Program-made: the position numbers and the translations under genes | In this document: positions 16,210-63,760 of the stretch, in pieces | Layout of the letters: each line of letters starts with the position of its first letter | Position numbering within the stretch: position 1 is the first letter of the stretch | IMG/VR virus record: IMGVR_UViG_3300049830_000285 | Location: 113,709-177,708 of that record | Strand: one strand, 5' to 3' | Length of the DNA: 64,000 nt | Source of the DNA: a virus | Notes under the pieces: generated by a model | The model's input: the letters and a program-made list of their open reading frames with translations, nothing else | Databases searched by the model: none | Told to the model about the DNA's origin: nothing

Positions 16210-16397
16210 GAATCAAGTATACCACTAAGTTGCTTTTTTGAGGATTTTAGGAGCGACTTAATTGCGCAGCCACCAATCTAGGCCTTTATCCACTGTTTTT
16301 TTGCTGCTAGTCGCTCCTGGTTGGTGATATGGACTTAATGTCGAATATCATGTAATTGCAGCACAACGGACATTAATATTATACGTTATCTTAAGAA

Positions 16398-16628
16398 AAG
16401 GTGTTACAGTTGAGCTTGCCCGCCGTTCTGCTTTATGTCATCATTTGTCTATTGGCCCCTAAACCATCCCATTATAGTGTCACGCTCGCACTAGGGAAAT
16501 TCGGGTTGCATACATCCTCCGTGGTACAAGCGACGAATCTCCCACGTTACGTGAATATGCGGCGAAGTTTCTCACCATGTCTCATTAGATTGAGGTTAGT
16601 GCGATGACTTCTCTGACTGTAACATCTT
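16398..16628 (-). ncRNA. rnpB: Compact RNase P RNA (rnpB-like)
   Basis: P1 16616-16628/16398-16410; P2 GUCAUC/GAUGAC; P3 hairpin; P4 CU*UCGCCG/CGGCGGG with bulged U; GAGAAACUUC and AGACAAAUGA..GCAGAACGGCGGG conserved-region matches; TATAAT immediately upstream. Confidence 0.8.
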
Positions 16629-16693
16629 ATTATATCCATAAAAGAAAGGTAATGAGGAAAAACCATCAGAAATTGTAAAACAAAGGTATCGTC

Positions 16694-17266
16694 ATGCATA
16701 AAAAATTAGTTTTAGCAAATTTAGCGGCTGTTGCCAATAGACTAGATGAGCGCGGTATTCATGATGGTGCTGATGCTCTTACACAAGTAATGCAGCGCAT
16801 TTCTCAAAACGCATGGTGGCAAAACGATGCTGGCGAGCCAATGTATAGCCCAGAAGCCATTCGCTCCGAAGAAAGAGCTGATAGCGAACGCGAATATGAC
16901 CAAGACCCAGGGGATTATAATTCACGACATGATTTTGAAGAAGAAGAGCCAGCTTTAAAGTCACCATCTCCTCATTTACTTCAAGCAATTCAACAAATTA
17001 TGGGCACACCACCGGGCACTCCGTATGTGAAAGGCTATGTTTGGGGCCCGTTAACAGATGAGGTTGCATTTGAAAATCGCGAAGATTTAATGAAAGTTGT
17101 GGATTGGCTATATCAACATCAAGAATTCAACAACGAGTGGGACGGCTACCGAGAACAGCCACCGAAAATTACAATGCCAGAAGATACCGCCGATTCTGAG
17201 CATCAAATGCAGCCAGAAAGAGAGGATTTCGGGCATTTTGGTGATGAAAGATTAATGGGTGAATAA
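16694..17266 (+). CDS. Acidic hypothetical protein with conserved N-terminal module (paralog 1)
   Basis: N-terminus KKLVLANLAAVANRLDERG..ADALTQVMQRISQ. Confidence 0.7.
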   Translation: MHKKLVLANLAAVANRLDERGIHDGADALTQVMQRISQNAWWQNDAGEPMYSPEAIRSEERADSEREYDQDPGDYNSRHDFEEEEPALKSPSPHLLQAIQQIMGTPPGTPYVKGYVWGPLTDEVAFENREDLMKVVDWLYQHQEFNNEWDGYREQPPKITMPEDTADSEHQMQPEREDFGHFGDERLMGE

Positions 17267-29097: not shown

Positions 29098-29437
29098 TTG
29101 GTATTTCACACAATCCAGCGTGAATTTTAGCATGACAGTTTCTACATACCAAAACGCATTTATCCATTTCAGCTTGTAGTCTTTTCAGTGAAACCATCTT
29201 TCTGACCAATGTTGCTACACAATCATCTTTGTCTTTAAGATGGTGAAAATCTAAACATACGATTTCTGATTCTCCACAACAAACACAAGGATTTTTTTGC
29301 TTCCATGCGTCTACATGGGCTTTATTTCTTTCTCGCTTACCCTGTCTATGGAATTTAGCATTTTCTTTTTTTCGTGCAGCATTTACTGGATTAGCATACC
29401 AATTTTGGTGATAGATTTTTCTTTCTTCGGCGTTCAT
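29069..29437 (-). CDS. HNH endonuclease (tRNA-associated)
   Basis: CVCCG..CLDFHH..EMDKCVLVCRNCHAKIH. Confidence 0.85.
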   Translation of the reverse strand: MNAEERKIYHQNWYANPVNAARKKENAKFHRQGKRERNKAHVDAWKQKNPCVCCGESEIVCLDFHHLKDKDDCVATLVRKMVSLKRLQAEMDKCVLVCRNCHAKIHAGLCEIPRAIGAAEAQ

Positions 29438-29475
29438 AGGTGTTTATTCTTATACATATGTTTACACACCTCTTT

Positions 29476-29517
29476 TCTCCGTGTAAAAGAGTAACTCTAC
29501 CGCTGAGTTAATCGCCC
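29476..29517 (-). pseudogene. Orphan 5' fragment of a tRNA-Val(TAC)
   Basis: GGGCGAUU acceptor strand, D arm ACUC/GAGU, anticodon loop UU-UAC-AC; no T arm follows. Confidence 0.75.
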
Positions 29518-29604
29518 GTAAAAGACGGAAAGCGAAAACCATATTGCCTATCGAACCCAACTTAATGGGATTAGAAGTAATGACTTTCATAGCCGCCTAA
29601 ATCT

Positions 29605-29924: not shown

Positions 29925-29999
29925 TGGTACCAACGGGGGGAATCGAACCCCGCCCCCGAGAAGGTATGAACTTCTGGCCCTTTGCCCAAGGTCGTTGGC
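29925..29999 (-). tRNA. tRNA-CAT (Met or Ile2), atypical D arm
   Basis: AGAAG-UUCAUAC-CUUCU, normal T arm, CCA. Confidence 0.7.
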
Positions 30000-30077: not shown

Positions 30078-30106
30078 TTGTGAACTTTCGTTCGGTGTAT
30101 AAATCT

Positions 30107-30148
30107 AAAAAAAAAGAAGGATTCGGTCTTTCTGACCGAATCCTTCTT
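30107..30148 (-). terminator. Attenuator terminator of the Met/Val/Ile/Ala tRNA operon
   Basis: 15-bp stem AAGAAGGAUUCGGUC/GACCGAAUCCUUCUU followed by a U tract. Confidence 0.9.
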
Positions 30149-30171
30149 GCATTTCTCTTTGCTTGTGGAAC

Positions 30172-30249
30172 TTAGGTCAGAACGTCCTCTGCGATAATCG
30201 CAGCGGCTACAACAATTGCCATGACCATAATGTTTCTGTTGTATCTCAT
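30172..30249 (-). CDS. Attenuator leader peptide MRYNRNIMVMAIVVAAAIIAEDVLT (not in the ORF track)
   Basis: 14 consecutive Ile/Met/Val/Ala codons; AAGGA upstream; the stop region pairs with the terminator 5' arm. Confidence 0.85.
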   Translation of the reverse strand: MRYNRNIMVMAIVVAAAIIAEDVLT

Positions 30250-30276
30250 TTTCGTTCTTTGTTCCTTTTTAAAATC

Positions 30277-30353
30277 TGGGTGCGAGCTGCTGGAATCTAA
30301 CCAACCTACCGGGGTTTATGAGACCTCGCTCGTCAACAGTAGAGTAAGCCGCA
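30277..30353 (-). tRNA. tRNA-Met(CAT)-like, atypical
   Basis: GAGGU-CUCAUAA-ACCCC, bulged acceptor stem, T-loop UUAGAUU, CCA. Confidence 0.6.
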
Positions 30354-30358
30354 TATTC

Positions 30359-30400
30359 ATTATGCACTGTCAATATGCATTTGTCAACAACATTTGAGGA
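30359..30400 (-). promoter_or_regulatory. Sigma70-like promoter with upstream TCCTCA
   Basis: TCCTCA-7-TTGACA-17-CATAAT. Confidence 0.8.
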
Positions 30401-31594: not shown

Positions 31595-31670
31595 TGGTGC
31601 GGAGGCAAGATTCGAACTTGCGACCTTTGAGGTATGAACCCAACAAGCTACCAGACTGCTCTACTCCGCA
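31595..31670 (-). tRNA. tRNA-Met(CAT), initiator-like
   Basis: GAGCAGUCUGGUAGCU D arm, GGG in the anticodon stem, CAU; own TTGATA-17-TATAAT promoter. Confidence 0.85.
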
Positions 31671-37339: not shown

Positions 37340-38710
37340 TTATTCTTGCACTGGCTTTACATAGGGGAACCAGCTCACCTGTCGAATGTGACTTGCGTCA
37401 GAGAGTGCCATAGCTAATCGGTCAATGCCAATGCCGACGCCAAAAGCTGGCGGCATTCCACAAGCTAAGGCGTATACAAAGTCGTGGTCGATTTGATTAC
37501 CAAGAGCATCAAATTGTGATTGAAATGCCGCGAGTTGAACTTGCGGGTCGTTTTGCTCACAGAATCCATTTGCAATTTCCATACCACTGATATATGCTTC
37601 AAATCTCTCTGCATACTTTCCATCTTGACTTCTAGCTAATGGCGAAATACAAGATGGGTGATGTGTGATAATTGTCGGAGACAAAAGCTTGGGCTCAACA
37701 AAAGACTTCATGCATTCTTCTAGCATTTCTAATGTTTCTGGCTTCGAGAAATCCCACTCATCAATATCATGACCAGCGTGTTCATAGATGGCTTCACGCA
37801 TTGTCATTGTTGTCCAATCGCTTTCATTAATCTTAACTTCAAAATGTTGTGAGGCCGCTTGTACGATTACCTTGAATCGCTCAATTCCTTGTGTGAAGTT
37901 ATCATACGCAGTGTAATACTCCAGAAGAGTAAACTCTGGATTGTGATGTGCGCTGATACCTTCGTTTCGGTATACAGTGCCAATTTCATACACGCGCTCA
38001 AAACCGCCACATAAAAGCTTCTTAAGCTGAATTTCCAATGAAATGCGCAGCTTTACGTCCGCTTCATATGCGTTGTAATGTGTATCGAATGTCTTTGCCT
38101 CTGCTCCGCCCGGAATTTGAAGTAACGTTGGAGTTTGAACTTCGATGAACGATGCAGTGTTGAGAGTTTCGCGAATATTTGTAATCATTCGCGAGCGTTC
38201 AACAAGTCGTTGTCGCAAATCATCATCAATGAGCATCGCCAAGTGTCTATGACGCATTAGAATTTCTGCATCACGCACTTGATTGAATGCTTCACCATCC
38301 TTTTCTTGACCATAAGGAACTGTCACCAGAGCCTTGCTCAAAATATGGAAATTCGATACAAAGATTGACTTTTCTCCAGCAACCGTTGCCTTGTAAACAC
38401 CCTCGAAGTGAACTAAGTCACCTGAGTGAATGTGCTTAACAATCTGCTTCCAGCCCTCGGCGGTAAAGCCTTGTTGAAAAACAACCTGGATGCGTGATAG
38501 CTGTGTTGCATTTGGAGTTTCTGAATACAAAATTGTGGCAAATGTCATACTCCCCATACGTCGAATAGTTAAAATTCGGCCGACGAGTGAAACACTAGTT
38601 CCCTCTTGATAACCACCACGTGGTATCCAGATGTATGGAGTATCCTGTAAATATGGGCGCTGTCCTAACTGGCGCAATTGTTCTAAACTGTCTATTCTAT
38701 CTGTTTGCAT
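37340..38710 (-). CDS. lysS: Lysyl-tRNA synthetase, class II
   Basis: OB-fold GRILTIRRMG, FIEVQTP, YEIGTVYRNEGISAHHNPEFT, ERFE..EIANG, GIGIDRL. Confidence 0.92.
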   Translation of the reverse strand: MQTDRIDSLEQLRQLGQRPYLQDTPYIWIPRGGYQEGTSVSLVGRILTIRRMGSMTFATILYSETPNATQLSRIQVVFQQGFTAEGWKQIVKHIHSGDLVHFEGVYKATVAGEKSIFVSNFHILSKALVTVPYGQEKDGEAFNQVRDAEILMRHRHLAMLIDDDLRQRLVERSRMITNIRETLNTASFIEVQTPTLLQIPGGAEAKTFDTHYNAYEADVKLRISLEIQLKKLLCGGFERVYEIGTVYRNEGISAHHNPEFTLLEYYTAYDNFTQGIERFKVIVQAASQHFEVKINESDWTTMTMREAIYEHAGHDIDEWDFSKPETLEMLEECMKSFVEPKLLSPTIITHHPSCISPLARSQDGKYAERFEAYISGMEIANGFCEQNDPQVQLAAFQSQFDALGNQIDHDFVYALACGMPPAFGVGIGIDRLAMALSDASHIRQVSWFPYVKPVQE

Positions 38711-43325: not shown

Positions 43326-43697
43326 GTGAAAGAAAATCTTGAACAACGAATGCGAGACACACTTGATGCCGACTTCCCTGAATGGGTGTGGCAACTAAAA
43401 CCAGGAAACCGTATTGCGGTTTGTTCATATCAGGGAAGCTGGAGCCCACAAGGAACTCGTTATTGGTATGCAAAAATCTTTGTCTGCATATCTGGTAAAT
43501 CAGTTTATTATTACGACCTCGATGACACCATGCGTTGGAATGACCTAAATGATGCTCAGAAATTAATCTTTAGAGGCGGAATAAATTGCACACATTACTC
43601 ACAGTCTCTTAAGCCGATTGAAGAACTTGCTGCAATAGATGCTGAAATTGACGCATATCAGGCTGCTCATCCAGATTGGCGCACTCAAGGTATGTAA
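43326..43697 (+). CDS. Hypothetical protein
   Basis: TCCTCA-16-TATAAT upstream. Confidence 0.55.
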   Translation: MKENLEQRMRDTLDADFPEWVWQLKPGNRIAVCSYQGSWSPQGTRYWYAKIFVCISGKSVYYYDLDDTMRWNDLNDAQKLIFRGGINCTHYSQSLKPIEELAAIDAEIDAYQAAHPDWRTQGM

Positions 43698-47148: not shown

Positions 47149-47280
47149 GTATGGTTCCAGGCAGTAATGAAATGTTACTAATAGCACTAAGCTGGAATGT
47201 GAGTTATGAAACGGTCACACTCGCTTAGTGGCGAGACTGATTTATGGAGTTAATAAGCAACTATTAGTGTCAGTCCCGAC

Positions 47281-47391
47281 TTAGCGAGTACGCCGACAAC
47301 GTTGCTGGAAAAAGCATCGAGCGCAAGCAACACGAGCAGTGTTCTTGATTTTTGCGCTGTAGTTAGTGATTGTGTTCATGATGCTATTCAT
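47281..47391 (-). CDS. Leader peptide MNSIMNTITNYSAKIKNTARVACARCFFQQRCRRTR (not in the ORF track)
   Basis: 3' half enriched in CGN-Arg, Cys and Gln codons; lies between the promoter and the Gln/Arg/Cys tRNAs. Confidence 0.75.
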   Translation of the reverse strand: MNSIMNTITNYSAKIKNTARVACARCFFQQRCRRTR

Positions 47392-47445
47392 TTTCGTCTC
47401 TCCGAATGCTAAGCCTGGATTATGGGCGGCTTTCCCTTACGTTTT

Positions 47446-47489
47446 ATTATGTCGTGTTCATCTAGCTTTTGTCAACTAGATTTTGAGGA
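47446..47489 (-). promoter_or_regulatory. Sigma70-like promoter with upstream TCCTCA
   Basis: TCCTCA-8-TTGACA-18-CATAAT. Confidence 0.75.
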
Positions 47490-50361: not shown

Positions 50362-50448
50362 ACCCTTCAACGGGAGTGTCCTGCCGTTAGACGACTGAAG
50401 CTTGCGCTAAAGCTGGGAATCGAACCCAGGTTACTCCCTCTGAAGAGT
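50362..50448 (-). ncRNA. Circularly permuted tRNA-like RNA (YrlA-like) module 2
   Basis: Order T arm, acceptor-like hairpin capped by GCAA, D arm; ends close as CUCUUCAG-A-GGGAG/CUCCC-G-UUGAAGGG. Confidence 0.65.
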
Positions 50449-50452
50449 TTCT

Positions 50453-50541
50453 ATCCTATAACGGGCTGCTCTAACCACTGAGCTACACCGCCGCGAACGA
50501 CGATGGTTGGATTTGAACCAACGACATACCCTCTATAGGAC
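50453..50541 (-). ncRNA. Circularly permuted tRNA-like RNA (YrlA-like) module 1
   Basis: T arm GUUGG-UUCAAAU-CCAAC, acceptor CAUCGUC/GGCGGUG capped by G-UUCG-C, D arm GCUC/GAGC, closing stem GUCCUAUAG/UUAUAGGAU. Confidence 0.75.
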
Positions 50542-50593
50542 TTCTTTATTCTTCCTCAACTCTATTGTTTTGTCAACCGATTTTGAGGAAAAA

Positions 50594-62390: not shown

Positions 62391-63248
62391 TTAAGCTGGC
62401 AAGCTATATTCGATATTATGTAAAATGCGCTCAACATCTTCCTGTTTACCTTTCTGAATGGCCTGGTGTGGCGTTAATCCATCCAGCATCGAATGTTCTT
62501 GATGCATAAACTTATCGGCTGATTCGCCTAAAACTTGCTGAGCGAGTGCGGTAATGGATTCAAGAATATAAGCTCGTTCCCATTTACGGATAGCATTATC
62601 GCTAACGTTATATTGTCTACCAACAGCCGAATATGATGTCTCTTTTATCATTCGTTTAAGTTCAGTGTAAGATGGACGAATCAGCACCTTTCTAAATTTA
62701 CCTTTTGCATATTGTTTCGGACGACATGCTTTCGAACAAATTGTTTTTTTAGTTACACCAGGGTCAAATGTTTTGTTGCATACAGTGCATTGAATAAGGC
62801 GTTGCAATATCTTGATTTTTGTTTTACCTTTTTGTCTATTGGTTTCACTTTCTTCAAGCGCATAAATATGTAAACCAATCTTTAATTCTTCGTGATATTT
62901 TGTTAACACATCGGAATGAAAACCTGAATGACACTCTCTATGGCATCTGCAACATAGTAGAATACATTTATCTAATTCTGCTTTAATTTGTTCCCAAGAG
63001 CGCGTGTTGCCCGATTTACTTAGCCCGAAATCTTTTTTATTGGGGTCTAAATGATGAAAATCTAAAGCTCCAACGCACAAATCGTATGAGCAAACATAGC
63101 ATTTGCCACCTTTATAGCGAATAGATAATGCCTTTAAATCTTTTCTGCGTCTATCAACATTAAATTTTGATTTACACTTATGGCTACAGAATCTACCACC
63201 TTTGTTAACAGGCAAATTGCATAAATGATATTCACAAATCGAACTCAT
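62391..63248 (-). CDS. HNH endonuclease fused to HTH-like and MbcA/ParS (DUF2384)-like C-terminus
   Basis: LDFHH..ELDKCILLCCRCH; YSAVGRQYNVSDNAIRKW; DKFMHQEHSMLDGLTP..NIEYSLPA. Confidence 0.8.
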   Translation of the reverse strand: MSSICEYHLCNLPVNKGGRFCSHKCKSKFNVDRRRKDLKALSIRYKGGKCYVCSYDLCVGALDFHHLDPNKKDFGLSKSGNTRSWEQIKAELDKCILLCCRCHRECHSGFHSDVLTKYHEELKIGLHIYALEESETNRQKGKTKIKILQRLIQCTVCNKTFDPGVTKKTICSKACRPKQYAKGKFRKVLIRPSYTELKRMIKETSYSAVGRQYNVSDNAIRKWERAYILESITALAQQVLGESADKFMHQEHSMLDGLTPHQAIQKGKQEDVERILHNIEYSLPA

Positions 63249-63288: not shown

Positions 63289-63364
63289 TGGAGCGGGGTG
63301 TGGGAATCGAACCCACTTAGTTTTGCTTAACAGGCAAACGCAATTCCAAACATGCCAACCCCGC
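63289..63364 (-). tRNA. tRNA-Asn(GTT), non-canonical acceptor (G1-C72, U73)
   Basis: UUUGC-CUGUUAA-GCAAA, CCA. Confidence 0.85.
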
Positions 63365-63386: not shown

Positions 63387-63462
63387 TGGAGGGTCGCCTG
63401 GGTTCTGACCCCAGCCCTCTCCGCTTAACAGGCGTCCGCAACTACCAGCTCGCTCACGACCC
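63387..63462 (-). tRNA. tRNA-Asn(GTT), non-canonical (U73, T-loop GUCAGAA)
   Basis: Loop CU-GUU-AA, acceptor GGGUCGU/GCGACCC. Confidence 0.7.
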
Positions 63463-63477
63463 ACTTAAAAACTTTGA

Positions 63478-63553
63478 TGGCTCCCCCACCAGGATTCAAA
63501 CCTGGAATCTCTCGGGTAACAGCCGAGCGCGATATCAGTTACGCCACAGAGGA
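63478..63553 (-). tRNA. tRNA-Asn(GTT)
   Basis: U1-A72, G73, CUCGG-CUGUUAC-CCGAG. Confidence 0.88.
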
Positions 63554-63555
63554 AT

Positions 63556-63597
63556 AAAAAAAGAAGAACTACCAGCTTCTCCTGGTAGTTCTTCTTT
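63556..63597 (-). terminator. Attenuator terminator of the Asn tRNA operon
   Basis: 16-bp stem AAAGAAGAACUACCAG/CUGGUAGUUCUUCUUU plus U tract, 3 nt before tRNA-Asn. Confidence 0.9.
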
Positions 63598-63627
63598 AAG
63601 TTTCCTTTTTTTGAAGTGGCGCTTGTG

Positions 63628-63696
63628 TTACTCAGCGCTTCTACCAGTGGCTGGTGAAGTATTAGCGTTATTATTATTGCTGAGAGTGTAAAGCAT
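63628..63696 (-). CDS. Attenuator leader peptide MLYTLSNNNNANTSPATGRSAE (not in the ORF track)
   Basis: 5 Asn codons within 6 positions; contains CUGGUAG complementary to the terminator 5' arm. Confidence 0.85.
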   Translation of the reverse strand: MLYTLSNNNNANTSPATGRSAE

Positions 63697-63717
63697 GATT
63701 GCGTTTCCTATTGACTT

Positions 63718-63760
63718 ATTGTATCCTCTGTGTTATCTTGTTGTCAACTGTTTTTGAGGA
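63718..63760 (-). promoter_or_regulatory. Sigma70-like promoter with upstream TCCTCA
   Basis: TCCTCA-7-TTGACA-18-TACAAT. Confidence 0.75.

Follow-up and report, generated by a model that had tools for sequence, protein, structure and literature searches.

The DNA analyzed here (hereafter, the window) covers the final 64 kb of a linear IMG/VR virus record of 177,708 bp with a G+C content of 40% and an estimated completeness of ~47% (CheckV). Its minus strand carries a compact unit (hereafter, the Asn unit) made up of a promoter, a short leader open reading frame (ORF), an intrinsic terminator, two tRNA-Asn(GUU) genes, a tRNA-like RNA and an HNH endonuclease ORF. The Asn unit comes from the partial genome of an uncultured giant phage. 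Its TerL has no close match among isolated phages (best matches <26% identity), and within IMG/VR it matched two short fragments (~80% identity), one 104-kb fragment (50% identity), and two complete phages, i.e., G004 (441 kb, 46%) and G005 (IMGVR_UViG_3300044957_000763; 479 kb, 43%). These two phages have 22 and 62 tRNA genes, respectively, isotype-sorted in both.

The promoter of the Asn unit (63718-63760, minus strand, as are all features of the unit) is near-consensus sigma-70, with 11 of the 12 consensus positions matched. A TCCTCA element (63760-63755) precedes the -35 box TTGACA (63747-63742), and an 18-nt spacer separates the latter from the -10 box TACAAT (63723-63718). A consensus scan of the minus strand from 63760 to 63289 identified it as the sole strong promoter, with no further match between 63718 and 63289. 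Twenty nucleotides downstream of its end lies the leader ORF (63628-63696), which starts with AUG at 63696 and has 22 codons followed by UAA. A weak Shine-Dalgarno sequence, AGGA (63706-63709), read from the sequence, is placed 9 nt before the AUG. The leader ORF is absent from the gene calls made on a second assembly covering the same region, in which a 539-nt gap was left empty.

Codons 7-12 of the leader (63661-63678; hereafter, control codons) are AAU AAU AAU AAC GCU AAU, thus including five Asn codons, all of which are read by the anticodon GUU. Only two windows of six codons with five or more Asn codons exist across all six frames of the entire record (177,708 bp), one of them being this leader. 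To evaluate the enrichment for cognate codons, short ORFs located up to 500 nt upstream of a tRNA cluster were scanned for the highest-scoring window of cognate amino acids among them, which was compared with those of 600 random regions. For the Asn unit, the empirical p value was 0.0017 versus random 500-nt regions.

Folding of the leader RNA predicted alternative pairings. Region 1 (63651-63659; CUUCACCAG), the 5' strand of hairpin 1:2, pairs with region 2 (63638-63647; CUGGUAGAAG) around a CCA loop with -8.0 kcal/mol, or -13.8 kcal/mol when an outer CUCAGC/GCUGAG helix is included. Region 2 is 8-17 nt upstream of the stop codon, i.e., within the footprint of a terminating ribosome, and may alternatively pair with the 5' arm of the terminator, as its CUGGUAG (63647-63641) and the CUACCAG of that arm (63588-63582) are exactly complementary. 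The resulting 2:3 duplex of 7 perfect base pairs has -12.1 kcal/mol, in comparison with a mean of -6.3 kcal/mol for shuffled sequences (p = 0.012, 1000 dinucleotide shuffles), and the 7-bp complement taken alone has a p value of only ~0.01. Both the 1:2 and the 2:3 helices of the Asn unit are fold predictions only.

The intrinsic terminator (63560-63597) has a 16-bp stem of -24.2 kcal/mol, formed according to folding by a 5' arm (63597-63582), a loop (63581-63576) and a 3' arm (63575-63560). It is followed by a U tract (63554-63562) with seven U at 63562-63556, then A and U. The fold of the leader plus terminator RNA is more stable than those of 200 shuffled sequences (z = -5.1), and the predicted antiterminator covers the loop-proximal, G+C-rich pairs that are the nucleation site of the terminator hairpin. 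The original prediction had placed a promoter at 63718-63760, a leader at 63696-63628 with AAT AAT AAT AAC GCT AAT, a CCAG-CCA-CUGG hairpin, exact complementarity between CUGGUAG and CUACCAG, and a 16-bp U-tailed terminator (63556-63597), and each of these elements was recovered as described.

The first tRNA-Asn(GUU) gene (63478-63553) was called by ARAGORN, matched the Rfam tRNA model with 53.7 bits, and has an encoded CCA and G73. Its start at 63553 is 2 nt past the U run, and not 3 nt as the original prediction had it. That prediction also counted two more tRNA-Asn genes, of which one, at 63289-63364, is a canonical tRNA-Asn(GUU) (ARAGORN; Rfam, 56.1 bits; U73 and encoded CCA). The other, at 63387-63462, turned out to be a non-canonical tRNA-like RNA with a GUU anticodon, a GUCAGAA T loop and an encoded CCA, which was not called by ARAGORN and had no Rfam match even at E ≤ 1. 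It folds into a cloverleaf, and its consensus with a homologue in G005 includes two compensatory pair changes.

Directly downstream of the Asn tRNAs is the HNH endonuclease ORF (62391-63248; phrog_2255, E = 7e-26). No convincing terminator was found in the consensus scan between the second tRNA-Asn and this ORF, which is thus probably co-transcribed with the tRNAs. An internal tRNA promoter downstream of the hairpin, which would have spoken against attenuation according to the original prediction, was looked for and rejected, given that the 2 nt between the U run and the tRNA leave no space for it and include no consensus match. As no other promoter match was found from 63718 to 63289, every tRNA transcript must cross the terminator.

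Searches for close relatives that could provide covariation found none. In a blastn search against isolated phages, the HNH gene was the only match, and an exact 23-mer of the tRNA-like RNA (63462-63387) searched in IMG/VR was found in G005 only. Metagenome contigs scanned with a 20-mer yielded one unrelated transposase contig and nothing else, and a 20-mer from the T arm of the first tRNA-Asn matched only unrelated tRNA-Arg(TCT) genes. A neighboring 150-aa protein had no relative in IMG/VR and one identical Logan contig (SRR35533450), and a 52-aa protein encoded upstream had zero homologues among 5.8 billion proteins. Since no close relatives of the Asn unit were found, its helices are without covariation support.

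For folds with a ribosome on the leader, the transcript was taken up to the terminator loop, and the masked footprint extended 12 nt upstream and 15 nt downstream of the first P-site base. When the A site was placed on any codon from 3 to 13, a range including all the Asn codons, the minimum-energy fold had the CUGGUAG:CUACCAG antiterminator, and 11 of the 16 nt of the terminator 5' arm were paired upstream. From codon 15 to the stop codon, the antiterminator was lost because region 2 was within the footprint, and only 4 of the 16 nt were paired upstream. Up to a length of 131 nt, the growing transcript without a ribosome kept hairpin 1:2 and its outer helices, at -18.9 to -21.1 kcal/mol. The antiterminator was favored in the untranslated transcript, by ~2 kcal/mol, at 135-139 nt only, and from 143 nt on the terminator was within the minimum-energy fold. 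As modeled, the three folded states (stalled, terminating and untranslated) are those of a classical attenuator. Placing a stalled ribosome on the full-length RNA did not abolish its equilibrium preference for the terminator (-35.7 to -39.8 kcal/mol, versus -20.7 kcal/mol if the 3' arm was blocked), which means that the switch has to operate kinetically, like textbook attenuators.

All sequence-level features of a trp/his-type attenuator are present and correctly placed in the Asn unit. Based on sequence, folding and comparison only, we consider it fairly likely that the Asn unit works as an Asn-responsive ribosome-mediated (leader-peptide) transcription attenuator, and that the phage probably makes its Asn tRNAs only while ribosomes read Asn codons slowly. 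We infer that the leader is translated, that read-through depends on stalling, and what the biological trigger could be. The attenuator envisaged in the original prediction is supported by the sequence, the folds and the recurrence documented below, and is to be modified in one respect: the proposed masking of region 1 by the ribosome is complete at the last Asn codon only and partial at the fourth, while a ribosome at the first three Asn codons opens the outer helix only.

In the proposed mechanism, transcription would start at the sigma-70-type promoter and a ribosome would translate the 22-codon leader. When Asn codons are decoded fast, the ribosome would reach the UAA codon and cover region 2, and the terminator would then fold and end transcription 2 nt short of the first tRNA. 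When charged tRNA-Asn is scarce, the ribosome would stall on the Asn run, opening the outer helix and, at the last Asn codons, covering region 1. This would release CUGGUAG for pairing with CUACCAG ahead of 3' arm synthesis, leading to read-through into the tRNA genes. Without translation, hairpin 1:2 would hold region 2 and the terminator would form. The operon gated in this way would include the two tRNA-Asn(GUU) genes, the tRNA-Asn-like RNA and probably the HNH gene, and the net result would be a feedback loop by which phage tRNA-Asn is supplied on demand.

The Asn unit is not the only one of its kind in the window. The motif TCCTCA-N6-9-TTGACA has four copies in the window (0.02 expected), and three of these four promoters head tRNA leader units, with the fourth heading a Y-RNA-like/tRNA-like RNA. 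The sister unit for Ile/Met/Val/Ala (30105-30400, minus strand) has the same promoter class, followed by a CAU tRNA-like RNA, a leader and a terminator. The 14-codon core of its leader (30249-30172) has codons for Ile, Met, Val and Ala only, and behind the strong terminator (30148-30114) is a Val/Ile/Ala tRNA cluster (codon enrichment, p = 0.005; sensor-terminator complementarity, p = 0.027). The sister unit for Gln/Arg/Cys (47149-47489, minus strand), also with this promoter class, has a leader (47391-47281) with Cys, Arg and Gln codons at its end, every Arg codon being CGN. Three tRNA-Gln, tRNA-Arg(GCG), tRNA-Cys and tRNA-Arg(UCG) are encoded behind it (enrichment p = 0.005), and no U-tract terminator was found in this unit. 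The tRNA-Met gene at 31670 is ungated, being 6 nt behind its own promoter without a leader.

Several further RNA features were observed in and around these units. The non-canonical CAU tRNA-like RNA (30281-30353, minus strand) follows the promoter and precedes both the Ile/Met/Val/Ala leader and the attenuator, and had only a weak Rfam match to tRNA-Sec (21.7 bits). Another uncalled tRNA-like RNA is at ~29925-29999. Within the Val/Ile/Ala tRNA cluster, a Cys/His-rich ORF (29120-29540, minus strand), HNH-like by eye, appears to split a tRNA-Val-like sequence (at ~29540-29480 / 29100). The unit of the fourth promoter (50405-50589, minus strand) had a sub-threshold match to YrlA (Y RNA-like; 35.7 bits, E = 7e-6), overlapped by a tRNA-like module with 28.2 bits, just below the cut-off. 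A proposed minimal RNase P RNA (16400-16626, searched in 16250-16750) had no Rfam match even at E ≤ 1, and no RNase P was detected within the window at the Rfam gathering threshold.

The tRNA clusters of the distant phages G004 and G005 have the same layout of sigma-70-type promoter, short ORF and terminator upstream. In these phages, a leader with YPYHPYPYHP precedes His/Tyr/Pro tRNAs, one with QQQQQ precedes three tRNA-Gln, and a Leu-rich leader precedes three tRNA-Leu. In G005, an Asn/His/Tyr-rich leader and a terminator are followed by the homologue of the Asn tRNA-like RNA and by Asn/His/Tyr tRNAs. A total of 9 of the 19 multi-tRNA clusters of the three phages had a cognate-rich short ORF upstream at p < 0.05, where ~1 was expected (binomial tail ~1e-7). 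Across units and phages, the leaders have composition rules in common and no sequence.

The Asn/His/Tyr cluster of G005 (L038:2288-1760, minus strand) also contains mini-ORFs with their own AGGA/AGA-rich ribosome sites directly preceding individual tRNAs. Asn codons precede the Asn tRNA-like RNA, Tyr/Asn codons precede tRNA-Tyr, and a mini-ORF containing three His codons extends into a His tRNA-like RNA. These mini-ORFs may be a second sensor layer inside the operon. A TROVE/Ro60-like ORF appears, by eye, downstream of this cluster.

If the leader and terminator of the Asn unit were a constitutive dampener or insulator that just reduced or stopped transcription arriving from upstream, with a fortuitous or irrelevant ORF, tRNA output would be indifferent to Asn decoding. 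This would agree with the weak AGGA Shine-Dalgarno sequence and with a terminator so strong (-24.2 kcal/mol) that it wins at equilibrium in every state. However, the unit has a strong promoter of its own 20 nt before the ORF, its Asn run is rare genome-wide, and codon-matched ORFs recur before tRNA clusters in three phages. The complementarity is also significant beyond the Asn unit: when the stretch that separates the control codons from the stop region was compared with the terminator 5' arm, p was ≤0.027 in five of the seven units having a terminator, i.e., here and in four others (Fisher combined p over the seven values ~1e-5, calculated by hand). We thus regard a dampener as unlikely.

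Slowing of the ribosome anywhere before codon 14 yields the antiterminator in the masked folds, as would be expected if the leader were a general sensor of translation capacity (ribosome or ternary-complex availability) and not Asn-specific. Yet that would leave unexplained why, across the units, leader composition tracks which tRNA isotypes are encoded downstream. Leaders matched with their actual tRNA sets scored better than all 200,000 permutations, in a matrix that is partly circular given that leaders were chosen partly by match; the random-region enrichment test is free of this problem. A general sensor is, in our judgment, improbable.

Four codon-matched leaders, i.e., that of the Gln/Arg/Cys unit in the window and those of Lys, Gln and Lys units in the relatives, have no U-tract terminator, and the mini-ORFs of G005 with His/Tyr codons run into individual tRNAs. 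Both would suit another route, in which leader translation acts via Rho access, RNase processing, or the stability or maturation of tRNA precursors, with the hairpins being incidental. The Asn unit itself, however, combines an intrinsic terminator of the textbook type with a positioned antiterminator, which makes this route quite improbable here. A function of the 22-residue peptide itself, with the terminator merely ending its gene, would suit an ORF with its own promoter, start codon and terminator, but is very improbable, as leaders from unit to unit and from phage to phage are alike in composition rules and not in sequence, and as no promoter would remain for the tRNAs past the terminator.

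Other genes of the phage are related to tRNA charging and repair. A class IIb synthetase (37340-38710, minus strand) was considered as a phage-encoded AsnRS and rejected, as it is LysRS-like, with lysine-tRNA ligase models as the best matches (E = 6e-113, under curated cut-offs). A T4 Rnl1-like RNA ligase is encoded at L002:6449-7618 (G000 66449-67618, minus strand; phrog_562, E = 2e-27). In T4, Rnl1 repairs tRNA cut by the anticodon nuclease, and the Rnl1-like ligase fits a phage facing tRNA attack. Outside the window, ARAGORN called a tRNA with a CUA anticodon, of amber suppressor type, at G000 43328-43402 (plus strand); the call overlaps a 330-aa ORF and may be spurious. CUA-anticodon tRNAs were also detected in G004 and G005, one of them within a Lys cluster.

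The role of tRNAs carried by phages is a long-standing question, and these tRNAs reportedly rescue infection from tRNA-cleaving defenses in several recent studies. Such rescue has been described in PMC10264068, which deals with phage tRNAs and tRNA-targeting defenses and mentions neither attenuators nor leaders. We give an even chance to a wider reading, in which giant phages have a regulon of codon-matched attenuators that gauge the decoding speed of each codon family and switch on each tRNA block when its tRNAs are short. The Asn unit would then be an alarm for the loss of tRNA-Asn, answered by three sequence-divergent Asn tRNAs, and cleavage by a host anticodon nuclease or host tRNA decay could be its triggers. 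If so, the product regulated would be the sensed tRNA itself, in a viral element, and a sensor of decoding speed would deploy phage tRNAs on demand. Leader composition would in that case be a readable label of the tRNAs that a phage treats as at risk. The Asn unit, being short and having control codons for a single amino acid, is the member easiest to test.

Known leader-peptide attenuators control amino-acid biosynthesis and a few synthetase operons. Like hisL, pheL and trpL, the Asn unit combines a short ORF close to its promoter, in which codons for a single amino acid are clustered, with alternative 1:2, 2:3 and 3:4 helices, an intrinsic terminator, and a stop codon that puts the terminating ribosome over region 2, and in all of them the untranslated leader is predicted to terminate. 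Unlike these leaders of biosynthetic enzymes, it is phage-borne and would regulate tRNA genes and sense Asn, and its terminator abuts the first tRNA (2 nt away). To our knowledge, there is no classical Asn attenuator. Among the Rfam leader families, only a sub-threshold match to Thr_leader was obtained (23.7 bits versus a cut-off of 55), and it covered the terminator alone.

The pheST operon, with its leader pheM, is similar in that an attenuator sensing charged tRNA controls a translation component for the same amino acid. It is a protein-coding synthetase operon of the bacterial chromosome, whereas the product of the Asn unit would be the sensed tRNA itself, making the feedback direct. T-boxes have the same logic, in that too little charged tRNA results in an antiterminator and in read-through into genes that restore aminoacyl-tRNA. 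However, a T-box binds uncharged tRNA directly via a specifier loop and the T-box motif and has no translated ORF, whereas the Asn unit has a leader ORF, and no T-box match was found in the window or the Asn unit at the Rfam gathering threshold or at E ≤ 1. The Asn unit thus belongs to no curated leader family and is not a T-box. Full-text literature searches found no such attenuator control of tRNA genes. Compared with the described cases that we know of or found, what sets the Asn unit apart is the product predicted to be regulated, i.e., phage tRNA genes.
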